Below are positions 7,737 to 26,266 of a stretch of DNA of 64,000 nucleotides, piece by piece. Every line of letters starts with the position of its first letter. Positions within the stretch are counted from its first letter, which is position 1. The stretch is taken from the NCBI GenBank assembly GCA_017502135.1, contig JAFVVP010000001.1, positions 544-64,543 of the forward strand. Reading direction: 5' to 3'. The stretch is from Clostridia bacterium. Its GTDB lineage: Bacteria > Bacillota > Clostridia > Oscillospirales > CAG-272. The position numbers and the translations under genes are program-made. The notes beneath the pieces were generated by a model. The model ran no database searches. It had not been told where the DNA came from and saw only the letters and a program-made list of their open reading frames with translations.

Positions 7737-8010
7737 ACCTCGGTCAAAAAAGGTTGATAATCTGGGGAATTTGCTCACGAATCTGCAGCGTACGGAAGTG
7801 GTTGTGCCGAATACGACGTACAAGGTGTTCGTGATCGGACGGCGGGTACTCAACTACTGCGGCGGGTTTGGCGTGGAGGAGTAAAACTATCAAAATCTAA
7901 TAATCAAAACTACGGCAGTTTAGGTTTGAAAGCCCTACAATCTGCCGTGGTTTTTGCTTTTACGACGCAGTGAATGTACCGTATAATTCCGCATATTATT
8001 CCTCAAATCA

Positions 8011-8039
8011 TTGACATCGTGCCGATAATGTGCTATAAT
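8011..8039 (+). promoter_or_regulatory. Consensus sigma-70-type promoter for the fic / R-M array
   Basis: TTGACA (8011-8016), 17-nt spacer, TATAAT (8034-8039), about 75 nt upstream of the fic ATG. Confidence 0.6.
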
Positions 8040-8047
8040 TATACTGA

Positions 8048-8089
8048 TATATTATAATTATTTTCACTTATATTATAATTATTTTCACT
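8048..8089. repeat. Perfect 2 x 21-bp tandem direct repeat (TATATTATAATTATTTTCACT) between promoter and fic
   Basis: 8048-8068 equals 8069-8089 exactly. The position suggests an operator. Confidence 0.8.
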
Positions 8090-8114
8090 CTTACAGACGA
8101 AGAGGTGCAGATAT

Positions 8115-8987
8115 ATGGCAATGAGAACACATGAAGCAGCTGAAAAATGGGGCATCACCGCGCGACGAGTACGTGTGCTTTGCGTAAATGGTCAGATCGA
8201 CGGTGCATGGCGCGAGGGCAAGATCTGGTACATCCCCGACAACGCTCCCAAGCCTGCTGACGGGCGAATCCGCAGTAAAGAAACGCTGATTGTGCAGATT
8301 GAAAGAAAAAAGGCGGAGCTGGATACTCGCCGTCCGCTGACCGAAGGCGAAGTCGCCCGGTTCAACGAAGATTTTATGATCGAGTACACCTACAACTCCA
8401 ACGCAATTGAGGGGAACACGCTCACTCTTCGCGAAACAGATATGGTGCTGAAGGGCTTGACCATTGATCAGAAACCGCTGAAGGATCACATGGAAGCGGT
8501 CGGCCACAAGGATGCCTTCTACTTTATCTGCGACCTCGTGAAGGATAATATTCCCCTCTCCGAGTCGGTCATCAAGCAGATTCACACGCTTGTGTTGGCG
8601 GATAAGCCGATGGATCGCGGTGTTTATCGCCGTGTCCCCGTTCGCATCATGGGCGCGAAGAACGAGCCTGTGCAGCCGTATATGATCGAGCCGAGGATGT
8701 ATGAGCTGATGCAGAAATACGCGGCGGACGAGCGAAATATCGTAGAGAAGCTCGCGGATTTGCACGTCGAATTTGAATCGATCCATCCGTTCATCGACGG
8801 CAACGGCAGAACCGGACGGCTGATAGTGAATCTGGAACTGATGAAAGCCGGCTATCCGCCGATTGATGTTAAGTTTACTGATCGGATGCGGTATTATGAG
8901 GCATTTGAGGATCGCGATGAAATGGCGCGGTTGTTTGGGGAGTATCTCAGTAAACGGTTGGATCAGTATTTGGAAGTACTTAAGTAA
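8115..8987 (+). CDS. fic: Fic-family protein with an N-terminal HTH (excisionase/MerR-like) domain
   Basis: Fic motif HPFIDGNGRTGRL. Upstream inhibitory-type motif SNAIEGN. N-terminal WGITARRVRVLCVNGQIDGA HTH. Confidence 0.9.
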   Translation: MAMRTHEAAEKWGITARRVRVLCVNGQIDGAWREGKIWYIPDNAPKPADGRIRSKETLIVQIERKKAELDTRRPLTEGEVARFNEDFMIEYTYNSNAIEGNTLTLRETDMVLKGLTIDQKPLKDHMEAVGHKDAFYFICDLVKDNIPLSESVIKQIHTLVLADKPMDRGVYRRVPVRIMGAKNEPVQPYMIEPRMYELMQKYAADERNIVEKLADLHVEFESIHPFIDGNGRTGRLIVNLELMKAGYPPIDVKFTDRMRYYEAFEDRDEMARLFGEYLSKRLDQYLEVLK

Positions 8988-9000
8988 AGGGGATAAAAAT

Positions 9001-9801
9001 ATGAAATTTGATTTTTCAACACCAATGACAATATATGAATTGTTAGCAATAATATTGGCAGCATTAGCACTTGTAATTCCGTTTTTTAAGTGGATATACG
9101 ATAAGTATATTCGAAAGCTTAAATTTAATTTTCTTGCTTCTGGAAAGTTATCAGTGTTTTTCAATAAAAGCGGAGCCTATGTTTCTCTTGGCGGTGTTTA
9201 TGAAGCAAAGAACAAAACTGCTGCAGTAAAAAACATATCCGCAAAAATTAAAAGGACTTCTGACAAGGCGATATTATCGTTGAGATGGTCTACCTTCCAA
9301 TCTCCGGTGTTTAGACAAATTGCAGGAAATTACGAAACATCATTTGAAACAGCTCATCCTTTCAAAGTTGAGGCAGACACATTAACTCCTGTATTTGTCG
9401 AATTTGAAAATGCAGAACAAAATTCTGGCGAAATAATAAATTCGATTATTAATCCCTTACATAAAAAAGCTAATAGTGATATGAATACTCTAAACATCTC
9501 TGTGCAGGCATATGACCCATCCTACAGAGCGAGCACGGAGTATAAAAACGCCTTAATTGCAATGAATGACATATTCTTTTGGAAGCCGGGGGACTATACC
9601 ATCAAATTGATTACAGAGTATAACAATTCCACATTTTCATGTTATGGTGAATTCAGTTTGACGAAAGAAGACTCAGAAAAATTGCGCGCTAATATTGAAG
9701 AATTATTTGTTGAGCCTCTTGCTAATAAAATCAACTGCAGAATAACCGTTAACACGGTATCAAAAGAGTTTAAACTTGATAATCAATCACGCAAGGAATA
9801 A
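9001..9801 (+). CDS. Hypothetical membrane-anchored protein (one N-terminal TM helix, beta-rich C-terminal domain)
   Basis: ATG at 9001 follows AAAGGGGA. LLAIILAALALVIPFF is a TM segment. AT-rich. Lies 13 nt after the fic stop and 3 nt before the next ATG. Confidence 0.7.
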   Translation: MKFDFSTPMTIYELLAIILAALALVIPFFKWIYDKYIRKLKFNFLASGKLSVFFNKSGAYVSLGGVYEAKNKTAAVKNISAKIKRTSDKAILSLRWSTFQSPVFRQIAGNYETSFETAHPFKVEADTLTPVFVEFENAEQNSGEIINSIINPLHKKANSDMNTLNISVQAYDPSYRASTEYKNALIAMNDIFFWKPGDYTIKLITEYNNSTFSCYGEFSLTKEDSEKLRANIEELFVEPLANKINCRITVNTVSKEFKLDNQSRKE

Positions 9802-9804
9802 TAT

Positions 9805-10716
9805 ATGTCAGATATATGGTCATTATTAAAAAACGCGAACGATGCATTAAAACCGAATTTTCTATGTGTCCCACCATATCGTTGCGTTAATGGTGAATAC
9901 CTCAATGAGATTAACGAATCCATTTCCGCTGGAAAAGATGCATCGTTGAAAGTTCGTGGCAGCATTAACCTTCCGTGGCAAAGAGCCTATCAGTTTGAAT
10001 ATCGCTATAAGAAATGCAAAATCTTTGAACCATTTATGCCTGCAATAGAGTATGCAACTTACGATGCAATGGAAGGAAATTGGATATGCGCATATTTAAG
10101 TTTTCTTGCTGTTGTGGAAGCAGTATTGCGAAAATGGGCAGATGAACAATCCCTTACATTCGAAAGAATGAAAGGAATTGCCGCGGCATTAGTGAAGCAT
10201 ATGCAGTCACAAAAATATTTTCCCGATGAACGCATTGCTATAACAGATGGATATATCGATTATCTTCAATATATCCTTTGCGAAGTTCTTTACGAAGGGT
10301 TCGACGGATACAAACTCAAGTCCTTTTCAGATATATTCAATCGAAATCTATCCTTGCACAAACTCGAAGGTGTCATGGATATTTCCGAAGGGCTGTCCAA
10401 TGTAACCCGTATCATGTTAGTGTTAGATATCATCGCAGAATTATACTTCATGCAAAATCCGGAAGAATATTGGACAACCACTTTTCACGCAGATCCTGAA
10501 AATAATCCCGATTTTCAATTGCGTTGGAAATTATACATAAAACATTCCATGTTGGCTATCGGTCCAAACGACAGACTAATTATTCAAAATGCGCTGTTAA
10601 ATTATGTTGATGATGATATCAAAAAGGCGACAACTGCAAAATTAGATTTGGAAATCAAATTATTATCCGGCAAATTTTTCACAGGAGAAAACCACTATGG
10701 CAAAGAAAAAAGTTGA
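9805..10716 (+). CDS. Hypothetical alpha-helical protein with an RNxxxH (HEPN-type Rx4H) motif
   Basis: 303-aa ORF with RNLSLH at residues 180-185 (nt 10342-10359). Overlaps the hsdM start by 20 nt. No other family recognised. Confidence 0.7.
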   Translation: MSDIWSLLKNANDALKPNFLCVPPYRCVNGEYLNEINESISAGKDASLKVRGSINLPWQRAYQFEYRYKKCKIFEPFMPAIEYATYDAMEGNWICAYLSFLAVVEAVLRKWADEQSLTFERMKGIAAALVKHMQSQKYFPDERIAITDGYIDYLQYILCEVLYEGFDGYKLKSFSDIFNRNLSLHKLEGVMDISEGLSNVTRIMLVLDIIAELYFMQNPEEYWTTTFHADPENNPDFQLRWKLYIKHSMLAIGPNDRLIIQNALLNYVDDDIKKATTAKLDLEIKLLSGKFFTGENHYGKEKS

Positions 10717-12301
10717 AGAAAAAATAAATCTTGATTCGATACTGTTCAAGTGTCGTGATATACTGCGTGCGGCGCGCAATTCGGGCTCGTTTTTTGAAAA
10801 GCGCGATATGATGCTGACGCTCGTGTTCTTGCGCTTCATTGGCGAGAAATTTGAGGACGGCGTTGAAAAGCTCCGTCAGGATCTTATTGCCCAGGGACTC
10901 GATCCCGATGATGAGGAAATCTTCGCGGCGTTCTTTGATGACGCTACCTTCACGGACGGTACGTATAACCTTCCCGTAGAAGCTCGCTGGTCTACCATCA
11001 TCAATACCCCTGCGCCCGGACTCAACGTTGCTCTTGACACTGCCCTTCACAGCATTGCTACGAGCAGTAAACAGCTCAAAGGATGCTTTGTCGAGGGTAC
11101 TTTCACTACGCGAAATCTCGCCGCTAACGACATCAAAAAGATCGTAGACGAAGTCAATAAGATCAGCCACAAGGCGTTTGGCGAGGAAAAAGACCTCATC
11201 GGACGTGTATACGAATACTTCCTCAAGGAATTTGCCGTAAACGCGACCAAAGAGGAAGGTGAGTTCTATACCCCTCACGATGCCGTGCAGTTGATCGCCG
11301 CTATGATCGAGCCTTTTGACGGTACACTCTATGACCCTTGTTGCGGTTCGGGAGGTATGTTCATTCAGAGTACCGACCTTATCCGTGAAAAGCGCGGTGA
11401 TATCAGCCGTATCAATATTTACGGTCAGGAGAAAGAGCCTGCAACCTATCGCCTTGCAAAAATGAACCTCGCTTTGCGCGGTATCAGCCACAATCTGGGT
11501 GACGAGGCTGACTCTACCTTTACCCACGACCTTCACAAAGGTCTCTACTTCGATTACATCATGGCGAACCCGCCCTTTAACCTCAAGGGATGGTACGATG
11601 AAAATCTCAAAAATGACTCCCGTTGGGCAGATTACGTAACCCCTCCCGAAAGCAACGCCAACTATGCCTGGATCCTTCATATGCTCTCTCACTTGAAAGC
11701 AACCAAGGGTGTAGCAGGCTTCCTTCTTGCCAACGGTGCGCTCGGTGACAGCGATACTTTGGAAATTCGTAAAAAGCTCATTCAGAATGACAAGGTAGAA
11801 GCTATTATCATTCTCCCTCGTGAGCTCTTTATTACCACCGATATCAGCGTTACACTTTGGATTTTGAATCAGAACAAGAAGGGCGGCGAATACCACGGCA
11901 GAACTCTGCGCAGCCGCGAGAATGAAATTCTCTTTATGGATCTTCGTACTTGGACAGAAAACCCCGTTAAGAACGAGGGTAAAAAGAAAATATTCTTGAG
12001 CGATGAACAGATTCAGAGAGCCGCAGACATCTACCATACTTGGCAAAACGAAGGAACGGATGGAACAAATTATGCTGTGCCCGAACTGTATCGTAGTGTA
12101 AGCAAGGAGATTATTGAAGGACAGGGCTGGAGCCTTGTTCCCAGTAAGTATATTGAGTTTATCGACCACGACTTGGATATTGATTTCAATGCTGAAATGA
12201 GCCGTATTCAGGCAGAAATGCGCGATGTTCTCGCACAGGAAAAGCAGTCTCAAAAGATGCTTGAGGATGCTTTTAGGGGGATTGGATATGGCATTAACTA
12301 A
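10697..12301 (+). CDS. hsdM: Type I restriction-modification system, DNA methyltransferase subunit M
   Basis: HsdM N-terminal domain, AdoMet motif DPCCGSGGM, and catalytic NPPF (IMANPPFNLKGW). Confidence 0.95.
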   Translation: MAKKKVEEKINLDSILFKCRDILRAARNSGSFFEKRDMMLTLVFLRFIGEKFEDGVEKLRQDLIAQGLDPDDEEIFAAFFDDATFTDGTYNLPVEARWSTIINTPAPGLNVALDTALHSIATSSKQLKGCFVEGTFTTRNLAANDIKKIVDEVNKISHKAFGEEKDLIGRVYEYFLKEFAVNATKEEGEFYTPHDAVQLIAAMIEPFDGTLYDPCCGSGGMFIQSTDLIREKRGDISRINIYGQEKEPATYRLAKMNLALRGISHNLGDEADSTFTHDLHKGLYFDYIMANPPFNLKGWYDENLKNDSRWADYVTPPESNANYAWILHMLSHLKATKGVAGFLLANGALGDSDTLEIRKKLIQNDKVEAIIILPRELFITTDISVTLWILNQNKKGGEYHGRTLRSRENEILFMDLRTWTENPVKNEGKKKIFLSDEQIQRAADIYHTWQNEGTDGTNYAVPELYRSVSKEIIEGQGWSLVPSKYIEFIDHDLDIDFNAEMSRIQAEMRDVLAQEKQSQKMLEDAFRGIGYGIN

Positions 12302-13385
12302 ATATAAACTTGGCGAGTTAATCAAACAACGCAGAGAGAAATACGACGGTTTAGAAGAGCTTCCTATAAAAGGTGTTGCTCGAGAAGGATTTATCTCACC
12401 TAAGCAGGACGGAGCGGATCTTTCTATCTATAACGTATATTATTTGAATGATTTTGTATTTAATCCCGCAAGAATGGAATTGAATTCTATCGCCCTAAAT
12501 ACGTTTTGGGATAAAGCCATTTGTTCTTCTCTGTATGAAATCTTTTATATCACTCGTACAGATTTGCTGCTTCCTGAATATCTGAATCTATATATAAAAA
12601 GAGATGAATTTGCACGCAAGTGCTGGTTTGAGGCTGTTGGCTCAGCTCGTAACTATTTCAGGGTAGCAGATTTATCAGAATTTGACATCGAACTTCCTGA
12701 CCTTCCCACTCAGCAGAAATATGTTGATATCTACAAAGCAATGGTTGCCAATCAGCAGAGCTACGAGCGTGGATTGAAAGATTTGAAGCTTGTTTGTGAC
12801 GCATACATCGAGAATATAAGTGCAGATGAATATAAATCGATTGGATTATTTATTAAGAGGAATCAAAATAAAAATCAAGAAAAAGTCTTTAACAAAACAC
12901 AGGTTAAAGGATTTAACAATGAAGGTGAGTTTATCAAGCCTATGCGACTGTTTTCAGGAGATATCTCGACATTCAAAGTAATTAAGAAAAACGATTTTGT
13001 TTACAATTCTCGAATAAATAGTACCATAAAAAAATTAAGCGTAGCTCTAAACGAAGGTGATGATTTAATTGTAAGTCCGGCTTATGAATCCTTTTACATA
13101 TGTGATACCGATAAATTAGATCCGTACTACCTATATATGTTGTTGCAAAGAGAACAATTTGCGAAGAAAGTTTTATTCCACTCATTTGGTAGTTCTACGT
13201 TAGTGTTTGGATTTGATAATTTGGGAGAGGTGGAGATTCCGATACCAGATATTCAAATTCAAAGAGCTATTGCAAACATATACAGAACTTATAAAGAACG
13301 AAAAGCTATCAACGAAAAGTTGAAAGCTCAAATTAAAGACATTTGCCCGATACTGATTCAGGGATCATTGGAGGAAGGAAAATAA
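12288..13385 (+). CDS. hsdS: Type I restriction-modification system, specificity subunit S (two TRDs)
   Basis: ATG at 12288 after AGGGGG, overlapping the hsdM end by 14 nt. Two target-recognition halves are separated by conserved helical spacers (QQKYVDIYKAM.. / IQRAIANIYRTY..). Confidence 0.85.
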   Translation: MALTKYKLGELIKQRREKYDGLEELPIKGVAREGFISPKQDGADLSIYNVYYLNDFVFNPARMELNSIALNTFWDKAICSSLYEIFYITRTDLLLPEYLNLYIKRDEFARKCWFEAVGSARNYFRVADLSEFDIELPDLPTQQKYVDIYKAMVANQQSYERGLKDLKLVCDAYIENISADEYKSIGLFIKRNQNKNQEKVFNKTQVKGFNNEGEFIKPMRLFSGDISTFKVIKKNDFVYNSRINSTIKKLSVALNEGDDLIVSPAYESFYICDTDKLDPYYLYMLLQREQFAKKVLFHSFGSSTLVFGFDNLGEVEIPIPDIQIQRAIANIYRTYKERKAINEKLKAQIKDICPILIQGSLEEGK

Positions 13386-13387
13386 TA

Positions 13388-14596
13388 GTGGCATTTAGAT
13401 TAAACATCGATAATATTCTTGAAACCAATATACGAGAATTAAATTCACATGAAATCACAAGTTTTGAATACGAGGATTTGTATAGCGATATAAGCAACGA
13501 GAAGTTGAAAACCGTTTTCACGTGGCTTCATGGCGGATACATGAGTCTTTTCAGAACAATGAACGAAAGACTTCCCACTAATGGATATGGTGCGCACTTT
13601 TGGGCAGAGCCGAGTAGGGAGTTGATTTTTATTATTGAACTTACCATATCTCTCCAAGGCTCTTTGAAAAAGACCGAGTGGGCTTTTTCGATAGACGAAT
13701 ATTACGATGATTTAATTAGGCAATGCCGAGAGTTTTTATCCAATAGTGGCGGTAGCACCCTGCCACCTAATATGAATAAAATAACACTTTGCTACGTAGA
13801 ACCTATTTTCAATCTTACAGAATCAATGGTTGTTAGCGGTGAGAGTCATTCTTTTGTTTCGAATTTAAAACCTATTGGAAATGGCTCTTACGCCAATGTG
13901 TTCCGATATACTGATGAATTTTACCACAGAGATTTCGTGCTTAAAAGAGCGAAAAACGATTTGAACGAAAAAGAGCTTCAACGGTTCAAACGAGAATTTG
14001 AGGAAATGCAATCTCTTCATTCCCCATACATAGTGGAAGTGTACTCGTACAACGAGGCAAGGCACGAATATATAATGGAATTGATGGATTACACTTTGGA
14101 AAATTACATCAAAATTCATAATCAATCCATGACCGTACAGGAACGCAGAAATATAATAATGCAGCTTCTACGTGCTTACGGATATTTATATTCCAAAAAT
14201 ATTTATCATCGCGATATCAGTCCCCAAAATGTGCTTATAAAGCAATATGACGATACCTTGGTGGTCAAACTCTCCGATTTTGGTCTTGTCAAAATAGTGG
14301 ATAGTGATTTAACATCGGAAAACACAGAGATAAAAGGTTCTCTAAATGATCCAGCATTAAAAACAGAGGGATTTGAAAACTATGGTTTGATACACGAACT
14401 GTATGCCATAACGTTACTATTCACATACGTGATGACTGGAAAGACAAACTGGGCAAAAATTAACGATTCTATTATCAAGCCTTTTATGAATAAAGGCACA
14501 AACCCCGATAAATCAAAAAGATTTCAAACGTTGGAGGAACTTGGCGATGCCGTTAAAGCATGTTTGATATCGCTTGAAAGACTACAGCAGTTTTGA
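13388..14596 (+). CDS. Hanks-type Ser/Thr protein kinase with an unknown ~170-aa N-terminal domain, embedded between hsdS and hsdR
   Basis: GTG at 13388 follows GGAGGAAGG (alternative ATG at 13343). Kinase motifs present: G-loop IGNGSYANVF, VLKRAK, YHRDISPQNVL (HRD at 14207-14215) and DFG (14276-14284). Confidence 0.85.
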   Translation: MAFRLNIDNILETNIRELNSHEITSFEYEDLYSDISNEKLKTVFTWLHGGYMSLFRTMNERLPTNGYGAHFWAEPSRELIFIIELTISLQGSLKKTEWAFSIDEYYDDLIRQCREFLSNSGGSTLPPNMNKITLCYVEPIFNLTESMVVSGESHSFVSNLKPIGNGSYANVFRYTDEFYHRDFVLKRAKNDLNEKELQRFKREFEEMQSLHSPYIVEVYSYNEARHEYIMELMDYTLENYIKIHNQSMTVQERRNIIMQLLRAYGYLYSKNIYHRDISPQNVLIKQYDDTLVVKLSDFGLVKIVDSDLTSENTEIKGSLNDPALKTEGFENYGLIHELYAITLLFTYVMTGKTNWAKINDSIIKPFMNKGTNPDKSKRFQTLEELGDAVKACLISLERLQQF

Positions 14597-14610
14597 AACT
14601 GGAGGTAAAA

Positions 14611-17600
14611 ATGGCAAACTTACAAAACTACAACGGACGCTATTGCGAATCTCAATTTGAATATGCGTTCCTCTCATTTTTAGAGGCAGAGGGATGGCAT
14701 TATCTGCACGGCAATAGCATTCCGCGTGAAAATAAAACTGCAGTTTTGTATGCGGATGATATGGAGCAGTTTTTGAGCAAGACCAATACGGATCTGACTG
14801 CCGACGAAATCCATCAGATCATGGACAAGGTGCGCCTTGTCGGTGCGGAGAGTGAGTTCTCCACACTTCATACGGTGTACGGATGGATGGTTGACGGCGT
14901 GCAGTTTGTTCCTCAAAGTGGACTTGCCCGTATGGTTGCGCTCATTGACTTTGAGCATCCCGAAAACAATATCTTCCGTGCAGTAAACCAGTTTACCGTC
15001 GAGTATATCAACAACGGGCAGAAGGAGAACCGCCGTCCCGATATTCTTCTGTATGTCAACGGTATGCCTCTGTGTATTATTGAACTCAAGAACCCTGCCG
15101 ACGCCAACGCAACGATTTTTGATGCCTACGAGCAGATCACCATTCGTTATTGGCGCGATATCCCTCATCTTCTGCATTACTGCCCCTTGGCATGTATTTC
15201 CGATGGTGTGAAAACTCGCCTCGGTACTGTCCACACACCCTACGAGCATTTCTATGCTTGGCGTCGTGTCAACGATGGGGACAAGGTATCCACGCTTCCT
15301 TTTGATGAACTCGAAACCATGATTAAGGGCGTATATGCCCCGGCAAGATTCCTTGAGATCTTCCGTGACTATATTTATTTTCAAGACCGCGAATACGACA
15401 GCGATGAGAAAGAAATCGTCTGCCGTTATCCGCAGTTCTTTGCTGCACGTTTGCTCAAGCAAAGTATCGTAAAATCGGTTATCGAAAAGAGCGGAAAAGG
15501 CGGTACATATTTCGGTGCGACCGGATGTGGTAAAACATACACCATGGCGTTCCTTGCTCGTCAGCTCGCGTTGCGTTGTACCGATGTTCCCGAAATCGGT
15601 TCGCCTACGATTGTAATGATCGTTGACCGTGAGGAACTGCAAAAGCAGGGTGCAAAGCTGTTCACCAAGAGTAAGGAATTCTTAAACCTCGGTGAAGTAA
15701 GCATCGTTCCCACCCGTAAAAAGCTCCGTGAGGAACTCGGCGCACGTGAAAGCGGCGGATTCTATATCTGTACCATTCAGAAGTTCTGCGACCGCGAAGA
15801 TGATAAAATCGGTCTGATCAATGACCGTGCCAATATTATTTGCTTCTCGGATGAAGCCCACAGAACACAGCTTGAGCATGCAAAGACGCTCAAGTTCAGC
15901 AAGGACACCGACGAAAATATGAAAGCTATGGTGTCCAAGCCTTATGCAAAGGTGCTCAAAGAGGCACTGCCCAACGCTACGTTCGTTGGATTTACCGGTA
16001 CGCCCATTTCCGAAACCTATCAGACCTTCGGTGACGAAATTGACCGCTATACCATGGATCAGGCTGTGGCAGATGGATTGACCGTATCTATCAAATACCA
16101 TCCCCGTATTGCCAAAGTCCTGCTCGATCAGGAAAAGGCAAAGGAAATCGAGGCATACTATAAGAAATGCTTTGATGATGGTGCTACCGAAGAAGACGTT
16201 GAAGCAAGTAAGAAAGCAATGAGCTCAATGGAAGTTATCCTTGGCGAGCCTTCTCGTTTGGAACGTTTAGCAGTAGATATCCATGATCACTATGTATCTG
16301 CTTGCGCCAAAGATCCCGACAGAGTGCAAAAAGCAATGGTCGTGTGCTCTTCGAGACCGATTGCATACGCACTTTTAAAGAAATTCCAAGAGAAATATCC
16401 CGAATGGTTCGTGGAAAAAAAGACTCCCGACGGAGTGAAAGTATCCGACGAGGAATTGAACAAGCTGAAGCCCATGCCATTTATGGCAATGGTTGCGAGT
16501 GTGGGCAAAAACGATGAGCCGGATATGTATAACTATCTCGGCGGTGTTAAAAACGGTTGTCGTTCCGAGGATCTTGATGCCGCATTTAAGCAAGACAATT
16601 CCAACTTCCATATCGTAATCGTTGTGGATATGTGGATCACCGGCTTTGACGTTCCTTCTCTGACCTATATGTATAACGATAAGCCTTTGAAGAAGCATCT
16701 GTTGATTCAGACCATAAGCCGTGTCAACAGAAAGTATCCTGGCAAGGATTACGGTTTCATCGTTGACTATATCGGTATTCGCGATAATATGCGTGAGGCT
16801 ATAAAGCAGTACGGTGGCGGCACCTCCATTGCTCCTTCTGCCGATGACGTGGAGCAGGCTACCGAGGTGTTTAGAGAACACATGGACGTTCTCAAGGATC
16901 TGTTTAAGGGGTATGACCTTACGCCATTCCTTGATCCCGAAGGAGATCCCGCTCTGCGTTATAGACTCTTAGCGAAAGCAGCCGAGTACGTATTTATCTC
17001 TACACAGGAATTGAACACGCAGAATAACGACGGCAAGAGTGTTCAGAAGGTATCCTTTAAGACATATTTTCTGAAGACTGTTAAGAGAATGCGTACCGCA
17101 TATGATATTTGTCAGCCCTCGGGTGAACTCGGAGAGGAAGAATCTGCCCTTGCACAGTGCTTTATGGCAATCGCAGGATTTGTCCGTAAGATGAGCGGCA
17201 CAAGCGAGGTGGATGCTGATACTATGAATCGCCACGTTGCGAAGATGGTTGAGGAAGCATTGAAGTATAACGAGGTTGAAAGCGTATTGGAAGACGGCGA
17301 GCAGGAAGATATTTTCAGCCCCGAATATTTCGAGAAGTTGTCTGACGTTAAAATGCCTGCCTCCAAGCTTGAAATCCTTGTAAAAATGCTTCGCAAGCAG
17401 ATCAAGGAATACAGCAAGACAAATCAGATGGCAGCGAAGAAATTCCAAGAGATGCTTGAAGAAACTATTAAGCTGTATCACGAAAGAAGAAAGCACCTCA
17501 CCGCAGAAGAAGCAGGAGAGGCGCAGGAGCACGCTACCGAGGATATTATCAGAAACGCTACCGAACAGGCACTTCGTATTTTGAAGGATATGAATGCCGA

Positions 17601-17940
17601 TCGTGAGAGCTTCCGAAAGATAGGTCTCACGTTTGAGGAAAAGGCATTCTACGATATTTTGATGGCGCTCCGAGATGAATACAACTTTGAGTACGGCACG
17701 GACAAAAAGGTGGATGGTATCGTTATTAACGATAAATGCAAATCCCTCGCTAAAAAGATCAAAGAGATTATCGATACCAAATCTTCCTTTGCAGATTGGC
17801 TCAACAATCAGATCGTCCGTGACCAGCTCAAATTTGATATCAAGGTTTGCTTGGTAAAGAATGGTTATCCTCCGCAGTATAGCCCCGAGGTGTTCCGTAA
17901 AGTTATGGAGCAGGTCGAGAATTTCGAGGAAAATAATTGA
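14611..17940 (+). CDS. hsdR: Type I restriction enzyme, R subunit (helicase/endonuclease)
   Basis: ATG at 14611 after GGAGG. HsdR_N nuclease region, Walker A GATGCGKTYTM, DEAH box FSDEAHRTQ, and a long C-terminal helical domain. Confidence 0.95.
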   Translation: MANLQNYNGRYCESQFEYAFLSFLEAEGWHYLHGNSIPRENKTAVLYADDMEQFLSKTNTDLTADEIHQIMDKVRLVGAESEFSTLHTVYGWMVDGVQFVPQSGLARMVALIDFEHPENNIFRAVNQFTVEYINNGQKENRRPDILLYVNGMPLCIIELKNPADANATIFDAYEQITIRYWRDIPHLLHYCPLACISDGVKTRLGTVHTPYEHFYAWRRVNDGDKVSTLPFDELETMIKGVYAPARFLEIFRDYIYFQDREYDSDEKEIVCRYPQFFAARLLKQSIVKSVIEKSGKGGTYFGATGCGKTYTMAFLARQLALRCTDVPEIGSPTIVMIVDREELQKQGAKLFTKSKEFLNLGEVSIVPTRKKLREELGARESGGFYICTIQKFCDREDDKIGLINDRANIICFSDEAHRTQLEHAKTLKFSKDTDENMKAMVSKPYAKVLKEALPNATFVGFTGTPISETYQTFGDEIDRYTMDQAVADGLTVSIKYHPRIAKVLLDQEKAKEIEAYYKKCFDDGATEEDVEASKKAMSSMEVILGEPSRLERLAVDIHDHYVSACAKDPDRVQKAMVVCSSRPIAYALLKKFQEKYPEWFVEKKTPDGVKVSDEELNKLKPMPFMAMVASVGKNDEPDMYNYLGGVKNGCRSEDLDAAFKQDNSNFHIVIVVDMWITGFDVPSLTYMYNDKPLKKHLLIQTISRVNRKYPGKDYGFIVDYIGIRDNMREAIKQYGGGTSIAPSADDVEQATEVFREHMDVLKDLFKGYDLTPFLDPEGDPALRYRLLAKAAEYVFISTQELNTQNNDGKSVQKVSFKTYFLKTVKRMRTAYDICQPSGELGEEESALAQCFMAIAGFVRKMSGTSEVDADTMNRHVAKMVEEALKYNEVESVLEDGEQEDIFSPEYFEKLSDVKMPASKLEILVKMLRKQIKEYSKTNQMAAKKFQEMLEETIKLYHERRKHLTAEEAGEAQEHATEDIIRNATEQALRILKDMNADRESFRKIGLTFEEKAFYDILMALRDEYNFEYGTDKKVDGIVINDKCKSLAKKIKEIIDTKSSFADWLNNQIVRDQLKFDIKVCLVKNGYPPQYSPEVFRKVMEQVENFEENN

Positions 17941-17951
17941 GAGGAGAAGCT

Positions 17952-19046
17952 ATGACAGAAAAAGGAGTCATTTATATTCTTACAAACCCGTCTTTCCCTC
18001 AATATGTAAAGATCGGCTATGCTGACAATGTGGAATCGCGGTTGAAACAACTGAATAATAGCGAGTGCATTCCTTTTGCTTTCCGTATTTATGCTACATA
18101 CGAAGTTGAGGAAAGACTGACGGATCTGAAGCTCCATGCGCTGATTGACCAGCTCAATCCGAATCTGCGTTCTATCGACGAAGTGGACGGCAAAAAGCGT
18201 GTTCGTGAGTTCTATGCGATGTCGAAGGAACAGGCGTATTCTATCCTTGAAACGATTGCTATTCTCGGCGGGCGCAAGGACAGGCTTCATCTGTATGAGC
18301 CGACCACGGAGGAGAAAAAGAGCGAGAATTTGGCACAGGAGATTGAGGAAGAACACATTGAGCGTCTTTCTCCGTTTGCCTTCTCCAAGTGCAAAATCCC
18401 TGTTGGTGCAACGATTACGTTTATTCATCAGGGCAACGCTAACTCTGGCGCACAATGTACTGTAGTGGATGATAAAACGGTTGACTATCAGGGGCGCAGA
18501 TTATCCCTTTCCGCCCTCGCAACCGAGCTTACAGGAAGCAAATGGGGCGTTGCCGGACCTCGATATTTCAAGTATAACGGCGTATGGCTTAACGAGCTCC
18601 GTGCCAAGGAAGAAGGTTGGAAGGTAACCTCGCGTCTTGATGATGTGTGGATTATTCCTTGCAACCCGAAATATTACGATATAGTCGCTGCGTTTGACCA
18701 CCTCGATGTAATCGAATGGAGTCAATCTACCAACACAACCGTGGGAGATACGGTTTACATATACGTTGGAGAGAAATACAAGTCGATTATGTTCAAATGC
18801 GAGGTTGTTGGTGCGGATCTGTATGGCAATCGTTCCACCGATGACCATCCGTATTATAAGGAACTGGAAAAAGATCCCGACGCTCGATATATGAAGTTGA
18901 AATTGGTCGAGAAATACCCCACCGGTCAGTATCCGCTGAAGGAACTTAAAGAAAATGGACTCACAAGTGTTCAGGGGCGAAGCAAGGCAACCGTGCAGCT
19001 GATGAAGTATTTGGAAAAACAACATTGGAGAAGTGATCTTTATTGA
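17952..19046 (+). CDS. GIY-YIG (T5orf172-type) nuclease domain fused to a C-terminal PUA-like (EVE/ASCH-type) domain
   Basis: N-terminus GVIYILTNPSFPQYVKIGYADNVESRLKQLN. C-terminus WIIPCNPKYYDIV...VGDTVYIYVG. ATG lies 11 nt after the hsdR stop, with a GAGGAG RBS. Confidence 0.75.
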   Translation: MTEKGVIYILTNPSFPQYVKIGYADNVESRLKQLNNSECIPFAFRIYATYEVEERLTDLKLHALIDQLNPNLRSIDEVDGKKRVREFYAMSKEQAYSILETIAILGGRKDRLHLYEPTTEEKKSENLAQEIEEEHIERLSPFAFSKCKIPVGATITFIHQGNANSGAQCTVVDDKTVDYQGRRLSLSALATELTGSKWGVAGPRYFKYNGVWLNELRAKEEGWKVTSRLDDVWIIPCNPKYYDIVAAFDHLDVIEWSQSTNTTVGDTVYIYVGEKYKSIMFKCEVVGADLYGNRSTDDHPYYKELEKDPDARYMKLKLVEKYPTGQYPLKELKENGLTSVQGRSKATVQLMKYLEKQHWRSDLY

Positions 19047-19076
19047 TTTTTAAAATTAATAAAACGAGGCTAATTA

Positions 19077-19937
19077 ATGATTCGCATAATAGAAAAATTT
19101 GAAGATAAGACCCCATCAAACATTGTTTTTGAAACCATAACGCTTTCTTCCGGTGATTCAATAAAGGTGTATACAATTGAAACAGTGCATGATCTAACCC
19201 AATTCATTGGTTATGGAAAGTATATGAATTGTCAAAATCATAATGTTTATTTGCGTGGGCAAACTTCATTGTATAATGGAAAACTAATACCTTCACTTTA
19301 TCGGGAGAAAACAAGTGTCAAAAGCATAACAGAAAATTATAATTTCAGGATGAACAAATTCAAAAGCAGCGTAAAATCATTTCACCAATACGAAAGAAAC
19401 GTTTTAGAACCACTTCTTCAGCATTATGGAATAAAAACGCCTTATATAGATTTGGTTGATAATGTATGGGTCGCGCTTTGGTTTGCATTACATCAAGCGA
19501 AATCTACAATAGTTAATTCACATGAATACATATATTACCATGATAGCAAAGAAAAATATGCATATATATTATTAATAGCTAGTGATGCTAGAGAAGTAAC
19601 AGAATATAAGGGCGTATATAAAGGTGATAAAACAACACTAGTGGATTTAAGAAATGCAACTCCTTCATACTTTTTAAGACCACATGCTCAACATGCATTT
19701 ATGCTTAGAAAGACAACTCCTTTTCCTGAAGACTATAGTGATTTGATTGTAGGAATAGCAAAAATACCTACGGCAATCGGATTCAAGTGGTTGGGAACAA
19801 ATGATTTTTTAACAGTGAATAGCCTTTTCCCGGCCATATATTTTGATTCTGGCTATGAAGTTTTAATGAAAAATTTTCCTGAAGAAAATGCAGGGATAGT
19901 AAAACAATATGGCTCAATACAAGTAATCACTGATTAG
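19077..19937 (+). CDS. FRG-domain protein
   Basis: YLRGQTSLYNGKLIPSLYR and LLQHYGIKTPYIDLVDNVWVALWFA match FRG hallmarks. AT-rich. Confidence 0.7.
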   Translation: MIRIIEKFEDKTPSNIVFETITLSSGDSIKVYTIETVHDLTQFIGYGKYMNCQNHNVYLRGQTSLYNGKLIPSLYREKTSVKSITENYNFRMNKFKSSVKSFHQYERNVLEPLLQHYGIKTPYIDLVDNVWVALWFALHQAKSTIVNSHEYIYYHDSKEKYAYILLIASDAREVTEYKGVYKGDKTTLVDLRNATPSYFLRPHAQHAFMLRKTTPFPEDYSDLIVGIAKIPTAIGFKWLGTNDFLTVNSLFPAIYFDSGYEVLMKNFPEENAGIVKQYGSIQVITD

Positions 19938-20025
19938 ACAGAGCGTATCATTTTTTCACCTATATGATTAATGTTTTGTTCTAAACAAGATGATTATCAT
20001 TGAATGAAAAAGCGGAGTGCTTGTG

Positions 20026-20466
20026 ATGACAAAACAAGATTTTCTTGAATATTGTCTCACCACCTACAGCACCACCCCCGACTATCCATTCGATGAAGAT
20101 TTCGAAATCGCCGTGCTCCGTCACAAGGACAACCACAAATGGTATGCCATCGTGATGCGCGTATCTCGCCGGAAGTTCGGCATCGATAGCGATGAAGTAA
20201 TCGATGTAGTCAACTTGAAGCTGCCGCTGGAGATGTTCGGCTCGTTCGGCGCGGTGAACGGTGTCTATTCGGCGTATCACATAAACAAGGTTCATTGGAT
20301 ATCGATGCTGCTTCCCGATGCGGCGGATGATTTGGTGGAGTTTCTTGTGAATGCGAGCTACGAGGCGACAAAGGACAAAAAGAAAAGCCGGAAAACGGCT
20401 GAATCATCCGTAATCGTTATCAAAAACTTAACACGATTCACGCTGGACTTCCTACATACTCTGTGA
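20026..20466 (+). CDS. MmcQ/YjbR-family DNA-binding protein
   Basis: TTPDYPFDEDFEIAVLRHKDNHKWYAIVM ... YHINKVHWISM is typical of the family. The alternative GTG start at 20017 is less likely. Confidence 0.75.
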   Translation: MTKQDFLEYCLTTYSTTPDYPFDEDFEIAVLRHKDNHKWYAIVMRVSRRKFGIDSDEVIDVVNLKLPLEMFGSFGAVNGVYSAYHINKVHWISMLLPDAADDLVEFLVNASYEATKDKKKSRKTAESSVIVIKNLTRFTLDFLHTL

Positions 20467-20596
20467 TATACTGTGTGCTACCACAAAAAGGAGGCACACA
20501 ATATGCGAAAATCATACACAATTCCATACCAAAAGAGCGGCTCTGCTGCGGTATTCACCGTGCGGAGCCGCTCTTGCTTTATGAAGGAGGCAGAGC

Positions 20597-20875
20597 ATGA
20601 ACATACTTGAAGATCTGTGGTTCGGCAACATCTCGCCGTGGGAGCGACCGTTCAAGAAAGACAGCGCATACGCACAACTGCTGGCTTTGGTGATTCGACA
20701 TCAGGATGATCTGCTCGGTCGGCTGAACGACGAGGAAAAGGAAATCTTCGAAAAATTCTCCGAATGCTCCACCGAGATGCACGATCTGACCGAGCGTGAA
20801 GCATTCGTGAAAGGCTTTACAATCGGTGCGCAGATTATCATTGAGGTAATGAGCAACACAAGCGAAGAAGAATAA
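20597..20875 (+). CDS. Small conserved hypothetical protein of Clostridia mobile elements
   Basis: 92-aa ORF with RBS GAAGGAGG 6 nt upstream. Sequence MNILEDLWFGNISPWERP..., followed by a terminator-like hairpin at 20888-20925. Confidence 0.6.
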   Translation: MNILEDLWFGNISPWERPFKKDSAYAQLLALVIRHQDDLLGRLNDEEKEIFEKFSECSTEMHDLTEREAFVKGFTIGAQIIIEVMSNTSEEE

Positions 20876-21149
20876 CACAAAGAACACCGCCTGTAACCGC
20901 AACAAACGGCACACGGGCGGTGTTTTGCGTTCCTGCGAGCATCCCCCGCAGAACGTATAAAACAAAGCGAACAACGAGCGAATTTACGCCCCTGTGTGCC
21001 TGAATTTATCAGAAGGACGAGCAGCAATTCTCGTTTTTTCATTTTAGATGAGTTCAAAGTAGGTTCGTATTTTCCACCGTCAACAGTTCGAGTCGGGTCA
21101 ACTACAGCCACTTCGATTTTTATATAAAAATTTTATTCTAAATCGGTTA

Positions 21150-21701
21150 AAAAGGGTGGTCAAAAGCATGAAAAAAACTATAAAGGTGAGGCGGTAATAA
21201 TTTTTTTTAGAAAATGCTATAAAAATATGCTCCAGAGCGTCCCAAAAATCTATAAAGGTAGGAGGTTAATAATAATTTTCGTTCAACTGAAAAAATCCAC
21301 CTCTCAAACGGCAGAAAAAATGTATAAAGATAAGGGCACATATTTTTTTTCTTGCAAAATGCAAAAAAAGACTTCTCAAAGTGCTTTAAAAAACTATAAA
21401 GATAGAGGTGAAAAATTATTTTTCTGAAAAACAGAAAAACATGCTTCAAAAAGCACGAAAAATGTATTAAGGTGAGGGAACAAAAAATTTCACAGTAAAA
21501 CGCAAAATAGACTTCTCAAAATGCTCAAAAAAGCTGTTAAGTAGAGGGTATAAAAAATTTACTGTACGGCCCAAAACAGACCTCTCAAAACGCTTCAAAA
21601 AAGCTGTTAAGTGAGGGGACAAATGTTTTTCTGTAAATATTCTGTGAATCCCCTCAAAATCACCCTGTAAAACTCCCTAAAAAAAGCTGTTAAGTAGAGG
21701 G
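21150..21701. repeat. Array of about 8 imperfect direct repeats with ~70-bp period (iteron-like), upstream of the RepA-like ATPase gene
   Basis: The conserved core (A)6 GCTGTTAAGT(A)GAGGG / CTATAAAGGTGAGG starts at 21178, 21250, 21321, 21394, 21463, 21533, 21603 and 21685. The last three units also share CTCTCAAAAyGCTyCAAAAAA. Confidence 0.8.
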
Positions 21702-21801
21702 ATTCATTTTCAACGCCAACGAAGGAGGTGGTTGCTATGATTTAAGCCATAAGCGTTTCAAAAACAGTCCGTAAAAAACAAATGACGAAAAGGAGAAGCA
21801 A

Positions 21802-22782
21802 ATGACAGCAGAAATGAAACTCAAAAGAATGTCCGAAATTGAATTGCAGGAGGTGGAGTGGCTCTGGTATCCGTATATCCCGTTCGGGAAGATCACGATC
21901 ATACAGGGTGATCCCGGAGAAGGCAAGACCACACTCGGACTGCGGCTTGCGGCGGCATGCTCCAACGGCAGCGGATTCCCAGGCATGGAAGAACGTGAAC
22001 CGATCAGCGTGATCTATCAAACAGCAGAGGATGGACTCGGAGACACGGTCAAGCCGCGTCTGATAGAAGCGGAAGCGAATGAAAACCTCATCTTCAATAT
22101 CAGCGAGGATACCGATGTGCTGACGCTGAAAGACGAGCGAATCGCGGAGGCGATACGGACAACCGGTGCGAAGCTAATGATTTTCGATCCCATCCAGGGT
22201 TACGTCGGTGAGGATACCGACATCAACCGCGCAAACGAAATACGAACGGTGATGCGAGGCATTGCAAACGTGGCGGAGAAGTCCGGATGTGCGATTGTCT
22301 TCGTCGGACATCTCAACAAGATGAAGGGCACGAACAGCGCATACCGCGGACTCGGCACAATTGATTTCCGTGCATCGGCACGCAGTGTTTTGCTTGTCGG
22401 CAGACTTCGCAAGTTCCCGAATGTGCGCGTGATCGTGCATGATAAATCTTCTCTTGCTCCCGAAGGAAAATCGATGGCGTTCAATCTAGGAAACGATGAG
22501 GGCTTCCATTGGATCGAAGGTTACGACAGCATCACCGCCGACGAACTTCTCTGCGGCGGAACGAACGAAACGAAGACCGACGCGGCGGAAGATCTGATTC
22601 GGGATATGCTTTCTTCAGGCGATTACGTTCCGTCCGAGAGGATCTACGAAAGAGCGAAGGAGAAAGACATCTCACCTCGTACCGTCACCGAAGCAAAAGC
22701 GAAGATCAAAGGGATCACCACAAAGAAGATCGGGAAGGCATGGCACTGGGCTATTTTAGAGAATGCCGACTGCACGGAATGA
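21802..22782 (+). CDS. RecA-fold AAA_25 / RepA-like ATPase of mobile elements
   Basis: Walker A GDPGEGKTT, Walker B KLMIFDP, and the typical N-terminal WLWYPYIPFGKITIIQG. Confidence 0.8.
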   Translation: MTAEMKLKRMSEIELQEVEWLWYPYIPFGKITIIQGDPGEGKTTLGLRLAAACSNGSGFPGMEEREPISVIYQTAEDGLGDTVKPRLIEAEANENLIFNISEDTDVLTLKDERIAEAIRTTGAKLMIFDPIQGYVGEDTDINRANEIRTVMRGIANVAEKSGCAIVFVGHLNKMKGTNSAYRGLGTIDFRASARSVLLVGRLRKFPNVRVIVHDKSSLAPEGKSMAFNLGNDEGFHWIEGYDSITADELLCGGTNETKTDAAEDLIRDMLSSGDYVPSERIYERAKEKDISPRTVTEAKAKIKGITTKKIGKAWHWAILENADCTE

Positions 22783-22860
22783 AGAAGGTAACAATGCAGT
22801 GTGTCTCTGCCGTGAAACGAAGATACCGTATAGTGTCTCTTGCATTGTTGCGTTATTCCT

Positions 22861-22882
22861 TACGGGACGGTTCCGTCCCGTA
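22861..22882. promoter_or_regulatory. Candidate oriT hairpin (TACGGGACGG-tt-CCGTCCCGTA)
   Basis: Perfect 10-bp inverted repeat in the 200-nt gap upstream of mobC-mobA. A second 9-bp inverted repeat, AACAATGCA...TGCATTGTT, lies at about 22790-22848. Confidence 0.4.
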
Positions 22883-22981
22883 TTGGCAAGTTTCGCCTTT
22901 GACAGTCATGCACTCCTTCGGGAGTACTGCAGCCAAGGCAAATGGGCTAAGCCCAAACCCCTACTTAGAAAGAGAGGACAG

Positions 22982-24280: not shown

Positions 24281-24282
24281 GT

Positions 24283-24899: not shown

Positions 24900-24988
24900 C
24901 AATTTTGTTAATTTTATCTCTATAACGTGACAAATGAGTAAAAGTATGCTATAATTCAGTTAGACAAATAAGAATTTGGAGGTATAAA

Positions 24989-25669: not shown

Positions 25670-25810
25670 CAAATTCCAATTTGTTGAACTGAATAACATA
25701 TATTCCCTGATATGAGCAAGGTATATCGACCTTGCTCCTTTTGTTGGGTATTCATAAAAAATGAATAAAAAGGTCATTTATGCATATCAATACTTATCTA
25801 ATACAGAGAC

Positions 25811-25840: not shown

Positions 25841-25844
25841 TTTT

Positions 25845-26208: not shown

Positions 26209-26266
26209 ATATAAATATATTTTTGCGATTGCATAAAATTGTGCTGATTTTGACAAACGTAAAAAT

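Follow-up and report, generated by a model that had tools for sequence, protein, structure and literature searches.

Two separately mobile accessory genes, one with a HEPN-type signature, in the leading part of a type I restriction-modification operon

The 64,000-nucleotide stretch of Clostridia DNA analysed here (the window) contains a type I restriction-modification (R-M) operon carrying at its front two conserved genes without annotation, ORF1 and ORF2, which recur in R-M operons of this type independently of each other. We read them as two unrelated, independently mobile accessory genes, with ORF2 as a putative second-line RNase in the manner of PrrC, and give this reading a probability of roughly 0.6. 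Independent distribution is evident from 68 related loci, and the proposed function of ORF2 draws on conserved residues that resemble the catalytic signature of HEPN RNases.

Operon organization

The genes follow one another in the order fic-ORF1-ORF2-hsdM-hsdS-kinase-hsdR (Table 1) as a single operon from a candidate promoter upstream of fic, which is the likely driver of the whole unit; no terminator-like site was found on the + strand between this promoter and position 17089. ORF2 starts 3 nt past the ORF1 stop codon and overlaps the beginning of hsdM by 20 nt. A first-pass annotation of this DNA had described two AT-rich ORFs with precisely this gap and overlap, placed between fic and hsdM, co-transcribed with the R-M system and in a defence context, all of which the present analysis upholds. 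Indeed, ORF1 (34% GC) and ORF2 (37%) differ in composition from fic (52%), hsdM (47%) and the window as a whole (49.5%), and the operon is a mosaic of cargo genes at 34-37% GC versus 46-52% for fic, hsdM and hsdR, which speaks for the independence of the two ORFs. The Ser/Thr kinase gene is another embedded cargo gene. The operon lies within a mobilisable island, in a bacterium of the gut Clostridia type.

Table 1. Positions of the operon features within the window.
Feature	Position	Strand	Evidence or remark
Candidate sigma-70-type promoter, upstream of fic	8011..8039	+	TTGACA-17-TATAAT, TG-extended, 12/12 match
fic (Fic/DOC family, N-terminal HTH), first gene of the operon	8115..8987	+	PF02661 E=6e-20; PADLOC PDC-S04/SoFic
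ORF1, 266 aa, family without annotation	9001..9801	+	ATG 9001, TAA 9799-9801
ORF1 N-terminal transmembrane helix, residues 11-37	9031..9111	+	AF2 helix 11-37; hydropathy
ORF2, 303 aa, all-helical, family without annotation, HEPN-type signature	9805..10716	+	ATG 9805
ORF2 E105-A-V-L-R109 (Ex3R)	10117..10131	+	E105 in 50/52 distant relatives
ORF2 R180-N-L-S-L-H185 (Rx4H, polar residue after R)	10342..10359	+	Conservation in homologues
hsdM (type I methyltransferase)	10697..12301	+	ATG 10697; PF02384 E=1e-85, PF12161
hsdS (specificity subunit)	12285..13385	+	PF01420
Ser/Thr protein kinase gene, between hsdS and hsdR	13343..14596	+	PF00069 E=1.5e-29; PADLOC mad6/Stk2/PD-T4-6-like
hsdR (type I restriction subunit)	14593..17940	+	HSDR_N, SWI2_SNF2, T1RH-like_C

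ORF1 is a membrane-anchored beta-sandwich protein

The ORF1 start codon is preceded by the ribosome-binding site AAAGGGGA. A 312-aa version of the protein starting at TTG 8863 was rejected as an artefact of ORF listing; every homologue begins MKFDF. Database searches retrieved at least 80 homologues, with E-values for the two families, ORF1 and ORF2, reaching 1e-188. In the hydropathy profile, the top 19-residue windows begin at residues 11 and 14 (mean 2.5), and the AlphaFold model (pLDDT 86.8) places a helix over residues 11-37, followed by a beta-sandwich; the protein also has an insert of three helices and is extended at its C terminus. Together, profile and model agree with the single N-terminal transmembrane helix plus beta-rich domain noticed at first pass. 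The K/R-rich segment KWIYDKYIRKLK directly follows the helix, and in the predicted topology the beta-sandwich and helical-insert domain probably lies on the cytoplasmic side.

Comparison of ORF1 with Pfam, NCBIfam, PADLOC and PHROGs yielded nothing above noise; weak matches to N4_RNAP_helical, DUF6941 and PtuB fell far below cut-offs and were discarded. The best Foldseek matches of the model were RbmA (E=1.7e-3), the TMEM106B lumenal domain (E=2.2e-3) and the LEA protein At2g46140 (1yyc; E=0.039), all generic beta-sandwiches with TM-scores of 0.24-0.42 and none at E<=1e-3. ORF1 shares with LEA-2/TMEM106B-like or FnIII/Ig-like single-pass proteins the succession of one N-terminal transmembrane helix and a beta-sandwich, but the match to the LEA-2/TMEM106B type, with E ~2e-3 and TM <=0.37, is marginal and generic, ORF1 has the insert and extension in addition, and the likeness carries no functional implication. 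ORF1 is a module in its own right, with its one N-terminal helix as membrane anchor. Judged from genomic context, it may act as an independent R-M-embedded accessory, either as a membrane-acting effector or by tethering the restriction complex to the membrane.

ORF2 conserves a HEPN-type signature

HEPN domains feature an Rx4-6H motif, with N, D or H right after the arginine, and an upstream acidic residue, typically within Ex3[KR] (PMC3710099). We followed these features in two ORF2 alignments, one of 30 close homologues (A1) and the other of 52 distant relatives with identities down to ~16% (A3). The first-pass annotation had staked its RNLSLH motif on the conservation of R180 and H185, and both residues proved invariant across A1, so that the motif is under functional constraint. 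Among the 52 distant relatives, R180 is kept in 49 and H185 in 50, which ranks them among the five most conserved positions of the protein, and 49 sequences have H (34) or N (15) at position 181. The spacing around E105 is Ex3R in the branch of the window and mostly E-x4-R in distant members. The most conserved residues of the family are E105(x3-4)[R/K] and N179-R180-[N/H]181-x3-H185. At the composition of ORF2, chance alone would produce ~0.01 RNxxxH and ~0.5 Rx4-6H motifs per protein; RNLSLH counts as more than chance because it is conserved, and only for that reason. ORF2 thus combines a conserved Rx4-6H, a polar residue after the arginine and an upstream acidic residue, and its conserved residues match the signature by which HEPN RNases catalyse metal-independent endonucleolytic cleavage. 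Conservation also extends beyond the minimal HEPN core, to R60, N12, L15, D208 and Y244.

The predicted structure of ORF2 (pLDDT 85, pTM 0.84) consists of 14 helices and no other regular elements, as anticipated for the helical protein of the first-pass annotation. E105 falls in helix 93-114 and RNLSLH between helices 144-171 and 193-215, an order compatible with a HEPN core. The motif itself lies within a coil of lower confidence (residues 172-192, pLDDT ~61) and not at a helix start; in the four-helix up-down bundle of HEPN domains, it would open the last core helix. Some 90 conserved residues precede the putative core and another ~90 follow it.

Searches for relatives of known family did not confirm the HEPN four-helix fold. 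The ORF2 protein matched neither HEPN nor any other family in Pfam, NCBIfam, PADLOC and PHROGs, and a Pfam scan of each of its 30 close and 52 distant relatives turned up neither a HEPN family nor any other that recurred. Sequence-profile searches of the PDB with A1 and A3 returned nothing but a designed binder (E=1.8), and an iterated profile search started from the distant relatives led to no protein with an annotation. Foldseek of the model against the PDB found neither a HEPN structure nor any other solved one (best E=0.97, TM <=0.19); long-helix matches of the ClyA/XaxB type were rejected as insignificant helical noise. Against viral predicted structures, the one match (E=0.3, TMt 0.52), to a Siphoviridae protein that is itself uncharacterised, is uninformative. 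Finally, hhalign of the ORF2 profile with HepT-like and Ymh proteins from related loci gave no alignment in what is a low-power, single-sequence comparison. This lack of a profile or fold match leaves membership of ORF2 in the HEPN superfamily, as suggested by its residues, plausible but unproven.

The family is small. Databases hold 51 homologues of ORF2, and only ~124 representatives were found among 1.84 billion protein clusters; members with a traced source come almost entirely from uncultured bacteria of gut, rumen and other metagenomes.

Both families recur within type I R-M operons

ORF2 is embedded in type I hsd operons in the window and at loci L001-L008, L017-018 and L054-058, in five distinct operon layouts; hsdR-ORF2-hsdS-x-hsdM is found among its homologues. 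The usual setting of ORF1 is hsdR-ORF1-hsdS in Clostridia MAGs, an arrangement shared by 15 of the 19 loci that represent separate bacterial species (GTDB representative genomes). When alone, either family usually has hsdR on one side and hsdS on the other, within type I systems of Clostridia from gut and rumen, and ORF1 on its own fills the same hsdR-X-hsdS slot that ORF2 fills in other genomes. The hosts of this embedding span two HsdR families, EcoEI_R_C and T1RH-like_C.

What lies embedded in a type I R-M operon is frequently a defence gene (PMC11411939; Payne et al. 2024, bioRxiv 10.1101/2024.01.29.577857). Both ORFs display this 'guilt by embedding': they share the strand of the hsd genes, lie next to or between them, and recur across different R-M systems. 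Each also occurs outside R-M operons, ORF1 at L039 and L045, and ORF2 at L021, L024, L028, L059 and L067. Relatives of ORF2 are found in other defence settings (beside Ymh and Gabija, between MmeI and GmrSD, or near Mrr or an integrase), and some in non-defence ones, after a hybrid histidine kinase or amid housekeeping genes. Neither ORF matches any PADLOC v2 family, candidates included, and other slot cargo gave only weak PADLOC matches, to PDC-S31 and PDC-M34B.

Alternative explanations

The first-pass annotation had taken the two genes for an abortive-infection pair. In its strict form, this would be an obligate two-gene cassette in which ORF1, as a membrane sensor, activates or restrains an ORF2 HEPN RNase, and it finds support in the 3-nt spacing within one operon and in an adjacency kept in five related metagenomic loci. 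However, these five (L062-L066) are the only ones among the 68 related loci with both families, ORF1 being alone in 27 and ORF2 in 36. All five share 88% identity or more with the window and so amount to a single shallow lineage. Where ORF2 identity is down to 85%, ORF1 is already cleanly missing from L054 (fic-ORF2-hsdM), where fic abuts the AAGGA ribosome-binding site that belongs to ORF2 itself, and relatives at <=73% identity have ORF1 without ORF2. The gene downstream of ORF1 also varies, encoding a 5-TM protein or a coiled-coil/Zn-ribbon protein, or is missing altogether. The co-variation across genomes that a pair predicts is therefore not observed. ORF1 and ORF2 are two separately mobile accessory genes and not a sensor-effector pair; the cassette is refuted as such, and obligate dependence between the two is very improbable. 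Two proteins without family assignment that are encoded beside ORF1 or ORF2 homologues, of 236 aa at L005 and 175 aa at L009, were compared with ORF1 and ORF2, respectively, as diverged versions of the missing partner and rejected. For annotators, the case illustrates that functional pairing does not follow from tight translational coupling. A different kind of dependence, on the R-M enzyme, would make ORF1 and ORF2 accessory subunits that localise or regulate HsdR. The position of ORF1 directly after hsdR, with gaps of few nucleotides, in the 15 loci mentioned above, the use of the same slot by ORF2, and the common strand and tight coupling with the hsd genes are all consistent with such a role. 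We nonetheless hold it quite improbable: the two families are alternatives for one slot, and the majority of type I systems lack both, the embedding involves two HsdR families and two gene orders, both genes live outside R-M operons as well, and their GC content is unlike that of hsdM and hsdR.

More weight is due to the possibility that ORF2 is not an RNase but a helical protein of new fold, either a regulator or adaptor of the restriction complex or an enzyme acting on another substrate, whose R-x4-H is convergent or coincidental. A confident model that nevertheless shows no structural or profile tie to HEPN families, the predicted loop location of RNLSLH, and the additional conserved positions, which suggest an active or binding surface that is distinct and more extensive, all speak in its favour. 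It must, on the other hand, accommodate the retention of the full HEPN signature, with N or H after the arginine and an upstream glutamate followed by a basic residue 4-5 positions on, as well as a neighbourhood of R-M, Fic, Gabija, GmrSD and Mrr that is typical company of HEPN toxins. The presence of the family in genomes without any R-M genes nearby further argues against a dedicated R-M subunit. We regard a non-RNase ORF2 as unlikely, if worth serious consideration. Its combination with an ORF1 that represents an unrecognised class of membrane-tethered type I R-M accessory is less probable still. ORF2 would then have reached its E...R-[N/H]-x3-H centre independently, or would use it for other chemistry; ORF1 might keep the restriction complex close to the site of phage DNA entry at the membrane or, alternatively, might be a membrane-damaging suicide effector released on HsdR inhibition; and the hsdR-X-hsdS slot would swap ORF1, ORF2 and proteins of 229, 236, 326 and 412 aa that are likewise unknowns.

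ORF2 as a candidate second-line RNase

The best reading of ORF2 remains that of a new family within the known theme of R-M-linked RNases. It is predicted to be an RNase effector that stands alone and acts as a second line through abortive infection, a type for which PrrC and at least 16 other R-M-linked HEPN clades are precedents, and which would stay latent while masked by the R-M complex or by its own N-terminal domain, and would cut RNA once a phage disables or overwhelms restriction. Both the RNase activity and this PrrC-like control logic are what we infer from the residues and the operon.

The survey of Anantharaman et al. 2013 (PMC3710099) covers R-M-linked HEPN clades with Fic/Doc partners and the PrrC model. 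Its R-M-linked HEPN toxins (Abi2/AbiD/AbiF, ApeA, EC042_2821/DUF3644, pEK499_p136, Ymh and others) resemble ORF2 in their Rx4H with N or H after the arginine and an upstream glutamate plus basic residue, in being lone same-strand genes in type I R-M operons, and in their company of Fic/Doc genes and mobile defence islands. Unlike them, ORF2 has no profile match (Pfam, PADLOC) and no Foldseek match, carries its motif in a predicted loop, and reaches 303 aa through the conserved stretches on either side of its putative core.

The PrrC anticodon nuclease of the EcoprrI type Ic R-M locus is likewise encoded inside an hsd operon and is a latent RNase released once restriction is neutralised, a logic that for ORF2 is only proposed. 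PrrC has an N-terminal ABC-ATPase domain, whereas ORF2 shows no NTPase domain in Pfam or NCBIfam and is modelled as all-helical. Moreover, PrrC sits between hsdS and hsdR, a slot held in the window by the Ser/Thr kinase, while ORF2 precedes hsdM here and lies between hsdR and hsdS elsewhere. Parallels for the embedding as such are provided by the rlo genes of Campylobacter jejuni, TgvAB of Vibrio cholerae VPI-2 (PMC11411939) and the candidates of Payne et al. 2024, which, like ORF1 and ORF2, are variable same-strand cargo of hsdR-hsdS and hsdS-hsdM/hsdR slots. TgvAB differs in that its two proteins, which are GmrSD-like and target DNA, form an obligate pair.

Should ORF2 prove to be an active RNase, the HEPN toxins known as a backup to restriction would gain a new family, so far invisible to annotation and missed by current defence-finder tools. 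More generally, type I R-M operons of gut Clostridia appear as cassette racks, in which one conserved hsd frame receives ORF1 or ORF2 in one slot, and they therefore offer a practical route for mining unknown defence genes. Cargo also swaps between otherwise related operons at a second slot of the same type I systems, which is occupied by either a kinase or a TIR protein.

Two unannotated genes that do not form a cassette

ORF1 and ORF2, the two genes lying between fic and hsdM, are real members of unannotated families. A collection of 5.8 billion proteins yielded 51 homologues of ORF2 and at least 80 of ORF1, all unnamed or 'hypothetical' and almost all of metagenomic origin, and exhaustive profile searching across 1.84 billion representatives of protein clusters uncovered only 124 ORF2 relatives. 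Pfam, NCBIfam, PADLOC and PHROG gave no family match for ORF1, ORF2 or any of 80 individually scanned ORF2 relatives. Newly described here are two families missing from every profile library searched, one of them also devoid of a match to any solved structure.

Profiles of the ORF1 and ORF2 families were run against 68 related loci, taken from metagenomes and species-representative genomes or retrieved by exact-protein look-ups. The outcome contradicts the two-gene cassette proposed in the first-pass annotation: the families occur together in only five loci (L062-L066), which encode proteins at least 88-90% identical to those of the window in a common fic-ORF1-ORF2-hsdM layout, and apart in 63, with ORF1 only in 27 (21 of these with at least 1.2 kb on either side) and ORF2 only in 36 (22 by the same measure). 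At the loci L054 and L055, from which ORF1 is cleanly missing, an 85%-identical ORF2 homologue directly follows fic, whose 3' end meets ORF2's own AAGGATAAT-ACATG leader; ORF1 is therefore present or absent precisely as a unit. ORF1 and ORF2 are not a cassette, their independence is very probable, and overall we read them as two independent embedded modules (probability about 0.6).

Operon layout and base composition

The positions and spacing first assigned to both genes held, as did their AT-richness and the identity of their neighbours, since domain matches confirmed fic (Fic), hsdM (N6_Mtase/HsdM_N), hsdS (Methylase_S) and hsdR (HSDR_N, SWI2_SNF2, T1RH-like_C). A ribosome-binding site, AAAGGGGA, lies upstream of ORF1; 3 nt separate its stop from the ATG of ORF2, which has its own AAGGA site 8 nt 5' of the ATG and overlaps hsdM (ATG at 10697) by 20 nt. 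Because a promoter precedes fic and no plus-strand terminator-like site occurs from there up to 17089, fic, ORF1, ORF2, hsdM, hsdS, the Ser/Thr kinase gene and hsdR make up one transcription unit, in line with the co-transcription suggested earlier.

Features of the R-M operon and its downstream region
Feature	Position	Strand	Remarks
Promoter	8011-8039		perfect extended sigma-70 consensus
ORF1	ATG 9001 to TAA 9801	+	266 aa; starts 13 nt past fic stop
ORF2	ATG 9805 to 10716	+	303 aa
Ser/Thr protein kinase	13343-14596	+	Pkinase E=1.5e-29; PADLOC mad6/Stk2/PD-T4-6-like; between hsdS and hsdR
T5orf172/GIY-YIG-like + DUF2924 protein	17937-19046	+	PADLOC PDC-S57, E=7e-97; candidate defence gene
FRG-domain protein	19077-19937	+	PADLOC PDC-S15; 32% GC; candidate defence gene
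Mobilisation module	21802-24899	+	AAA_25 ATPase, NikA/MobC-like protein, MobA/VirD2 relaxase (325 aa); downstream of R-M island

The region 8001-28000 forms a low-GC block (41-47% vs 50-57% in the flanks; window 49.5%). Within it, GC content runs from 52% in fic to 34% in ORF1, 37% in ORF2, 47% in hsdM, 35% in hsdS, 37% in the kinase gene, 46% in hsdR and 46% in the T5orf172 gene, an alternation consistent with modular assembly of the operon from different sources. The kinase gene overlaps hsdS at its start and hsdR at its end, and the T5orf172 and FRG genes follow directly 3' of hsdR in the same orientation. Given the mobilisation module downstream, the R-M island appears to reside on a mobilisable, possibly decayed, element. 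An IS1595-like transposase ORF overlaps the 3' part of the relaxase gene, and relaxase/NikA/AAA_25 genes likewise flank the ORF2 locus L056.

Genomic company of the two families

Of 19 species-level loci, 15 carry ORF1 within an hsdR-ORF1-hsdS-(x)-hsdM operon, hosted by Oscillospiraceae, Acutalibacteraceae, Lachnospiraceae, Ruminococcus, Butyricicoccus, Flavonifractor and others; at one exception, a Fic fragment lies directly upstream. ORF2 fills the hsdR-X-hsdS slot in several distinct operons. Such operons encode an EcoEI_R_C-type HsdR, as opposed to T1RH-like_C in the window, and because hsd family and gene order differ, the link of both genes is to type I R-M in general.

Elsewhere, ORF2 has an MmeI-type enzyme on one side and GmrSD on the other, lies close to Mrr in an integrative element, or is bordered by a Ymh protein, an ArsC-like gene and Gabija. 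At L059:1050-6729 (also L060 and L061), the latter arrangement comprises a 65%-identical ORF2 between the Ymh-family protein, Ymh being a HEPN family (PMC3710099), and an ArsC/glutaredoxin-like gene, then Gabija (GajA-like OLD/TOPRIM ATPase and UvrD helicase) and an integrase. An ORF2-ArsC/glutaredoxin fusion is on record as protein P0010 (414 aa). A few settings are non-defence, with ORF2 among housekeeping genes or after a hybrid histidine kinase. In the latter (L023:3015-6340, L024:7572-10897, L027:7572-10858), a distant ORF2 (about 41% identity) overlaps the kinase end by about 19 nt and a response-regulator/HD-domain gene precedes the kinase; this signalling context is unexplained by the R-M model.

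Other cargo occupies comparable positions. L064, otherwise near-identical to the window, holds a CAP12/Pycsar-type TIR protein and a 415-aa unknown in the kinase slot (hsdS-hsdR). Several uncharacterised proteins of 135 to 412 aa are embedded in hsdR-hsdS and hsdS-hsdM slots of Clostridia type I operons (L001:10113-12349; L005:10027-10737; L013:10020-10709; L056:8622-9987 and 12092-14039), with no match in Pfam and none or marginal ones only in PADLOC.

ORF2 carries a conserved HEPN-like signature

The expected chance occurrence in ORF2 is about 0.01 for RNxxxH and about 0.5 for Rx4-6H; a lone RNxxxH match is unremarkable, and it is the conservation of the motif that is remarkable. Across 30 homologues with identity down to 37%, F178, N179, R180, N181, L182, H185, L187 and G189 are invariant, and relatives to about 16% identity retain R180 (49/52), H185 (50/52), N179 (47/52), H or N at position 181 (49/52) and E105 (50/52). 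Downstream of E105 comes a basic residue, which is R109 (Ex3R) in the branch that includes the window and an R at +5 among distant members. After the initiator Met, the five most conserved positions are R60, H185, E105, Y244 and R180. The same hallmarks are listed for the HEPN superfamily: an Rx4-6H motif whose R precedes a polar residue (N/D/H), and an acidic residue further upstream, typically in Ex3[KR] (PMC3710099).

The structural model (14 helices, pLDDT 85, pTM 0.84; no membrane segment) upholds a helical protein whose chain order is compatible with a HEPN core: helix 93-114 contains E105, its hairpin partner spans 119-135, and helices 144-171 and 193-215 bracket the motif. Counting against HEPN, the motif is modelled as coil of lower confidence; Foldseek hits in the PDB were all insignificant (best E=0.97, TM at most 0.19), and neither structure nor profile comparisons tied ORF2 to any HEPN family. 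Since ORF2 bears the signature and lacks HEPN profile membership, we call it a HEPN-like candidate. Among viral predicted structures, ORF2 weakly matched one uncharacterised protein, encoded by an uncultured siphovirus (BFVD A0A8S5NQ77, 217 aa, E=0.3, prob 0.98, TMt 0.52); it is the only relative recovered at the level of structure and hints at a shortened form of the fold in phages or prophages.

Links to R-M systems have been described for at least 16 HEPN clades, frequently with Fic/Doc toxins alongside, and by analogy with PrrC these clades are read as a second-line defence released on neutralised restriction (Anantharaman et al., PMC3710099). The window layout agrees with these clades in its R-M genes and Fic/Doc company, and also with the 'embedded gene' principle illustrated by the Campylobacter rlo genes, which sit between hsdR and hsdS, by TgvAB of Vibrio cholerae (PMC11411939) and by the cases of Payne et al. 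(bioRxiv 10.1101/2024.01.29.577857), in which genes embedded in type I R-M loci are mostly defence genes and include a validated HEPN protein with an essential Rx4-6H histidine. PrrC itself occupies the hsdS-hsdR position of EcoprrI, held in the window by the Ser/Thr kinase. We give an even chance to ORF2 being a HEPN-type RNase effector, which by analogy with PrrC would be a second line freed on neutralised restriction. An alternative in which ORF2 has a novel fold whose catalytic centre arose by convergence, and ORF1 founds a new class of accessories to type I restriction that are tethered to the membrane, seems unlikely. Neither HEPN-like toxins embedded in R-M loci nor R-M operons built like cassettes are new in themselves; what the locus adds is a clean case of slot swapping in nature.

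ORF1 is a predicted membrane-anchored protein

The AlphaFold model of ORF1 (pLDDT 86.8) agrees with the one N-terminal TM helix and beta-rich domain noted at first: helix 11-37 is the single strongly hydrophobic segment, and a beta-sandwich (41-137), a three-helix insert (142-191), and a beta-hairpin with C-terminal helices follow. The K/R-rich stretch directly after the helix suggests, by the positive-inside rule, a cytoplasmic globular part. Foldseek matches were marginal (E about 2e-3, TM at most 0.42) and involved sandwich domains of a generic kind (RbmA, the TMEM106B lumenal domain, a LEA-2 protein and Kir C-terminal domains). Context and architecture suggest that ORF1 might either act on the membrane as an effector or tether the restriction complex to it.

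The partners of ORF1 may differ between lineages. At L009, a 73%-identical ORF1 precedes an unrelated 5-TM protein; elsewhere its 3' neighbour is a coiled-coil/Zn-ribbon protein, or hsdS directly. The 5-TM protein, conserved and of 175 aa with five predicted TM segments, follows 69-73%-identical ORF1 homologues at L009:8823-9350 and L035 (about 10760-11300), and those of L036 and L040 are followed by a coiled-coil protein that is about 120 aa long and Cys-rich at its C-terminus.
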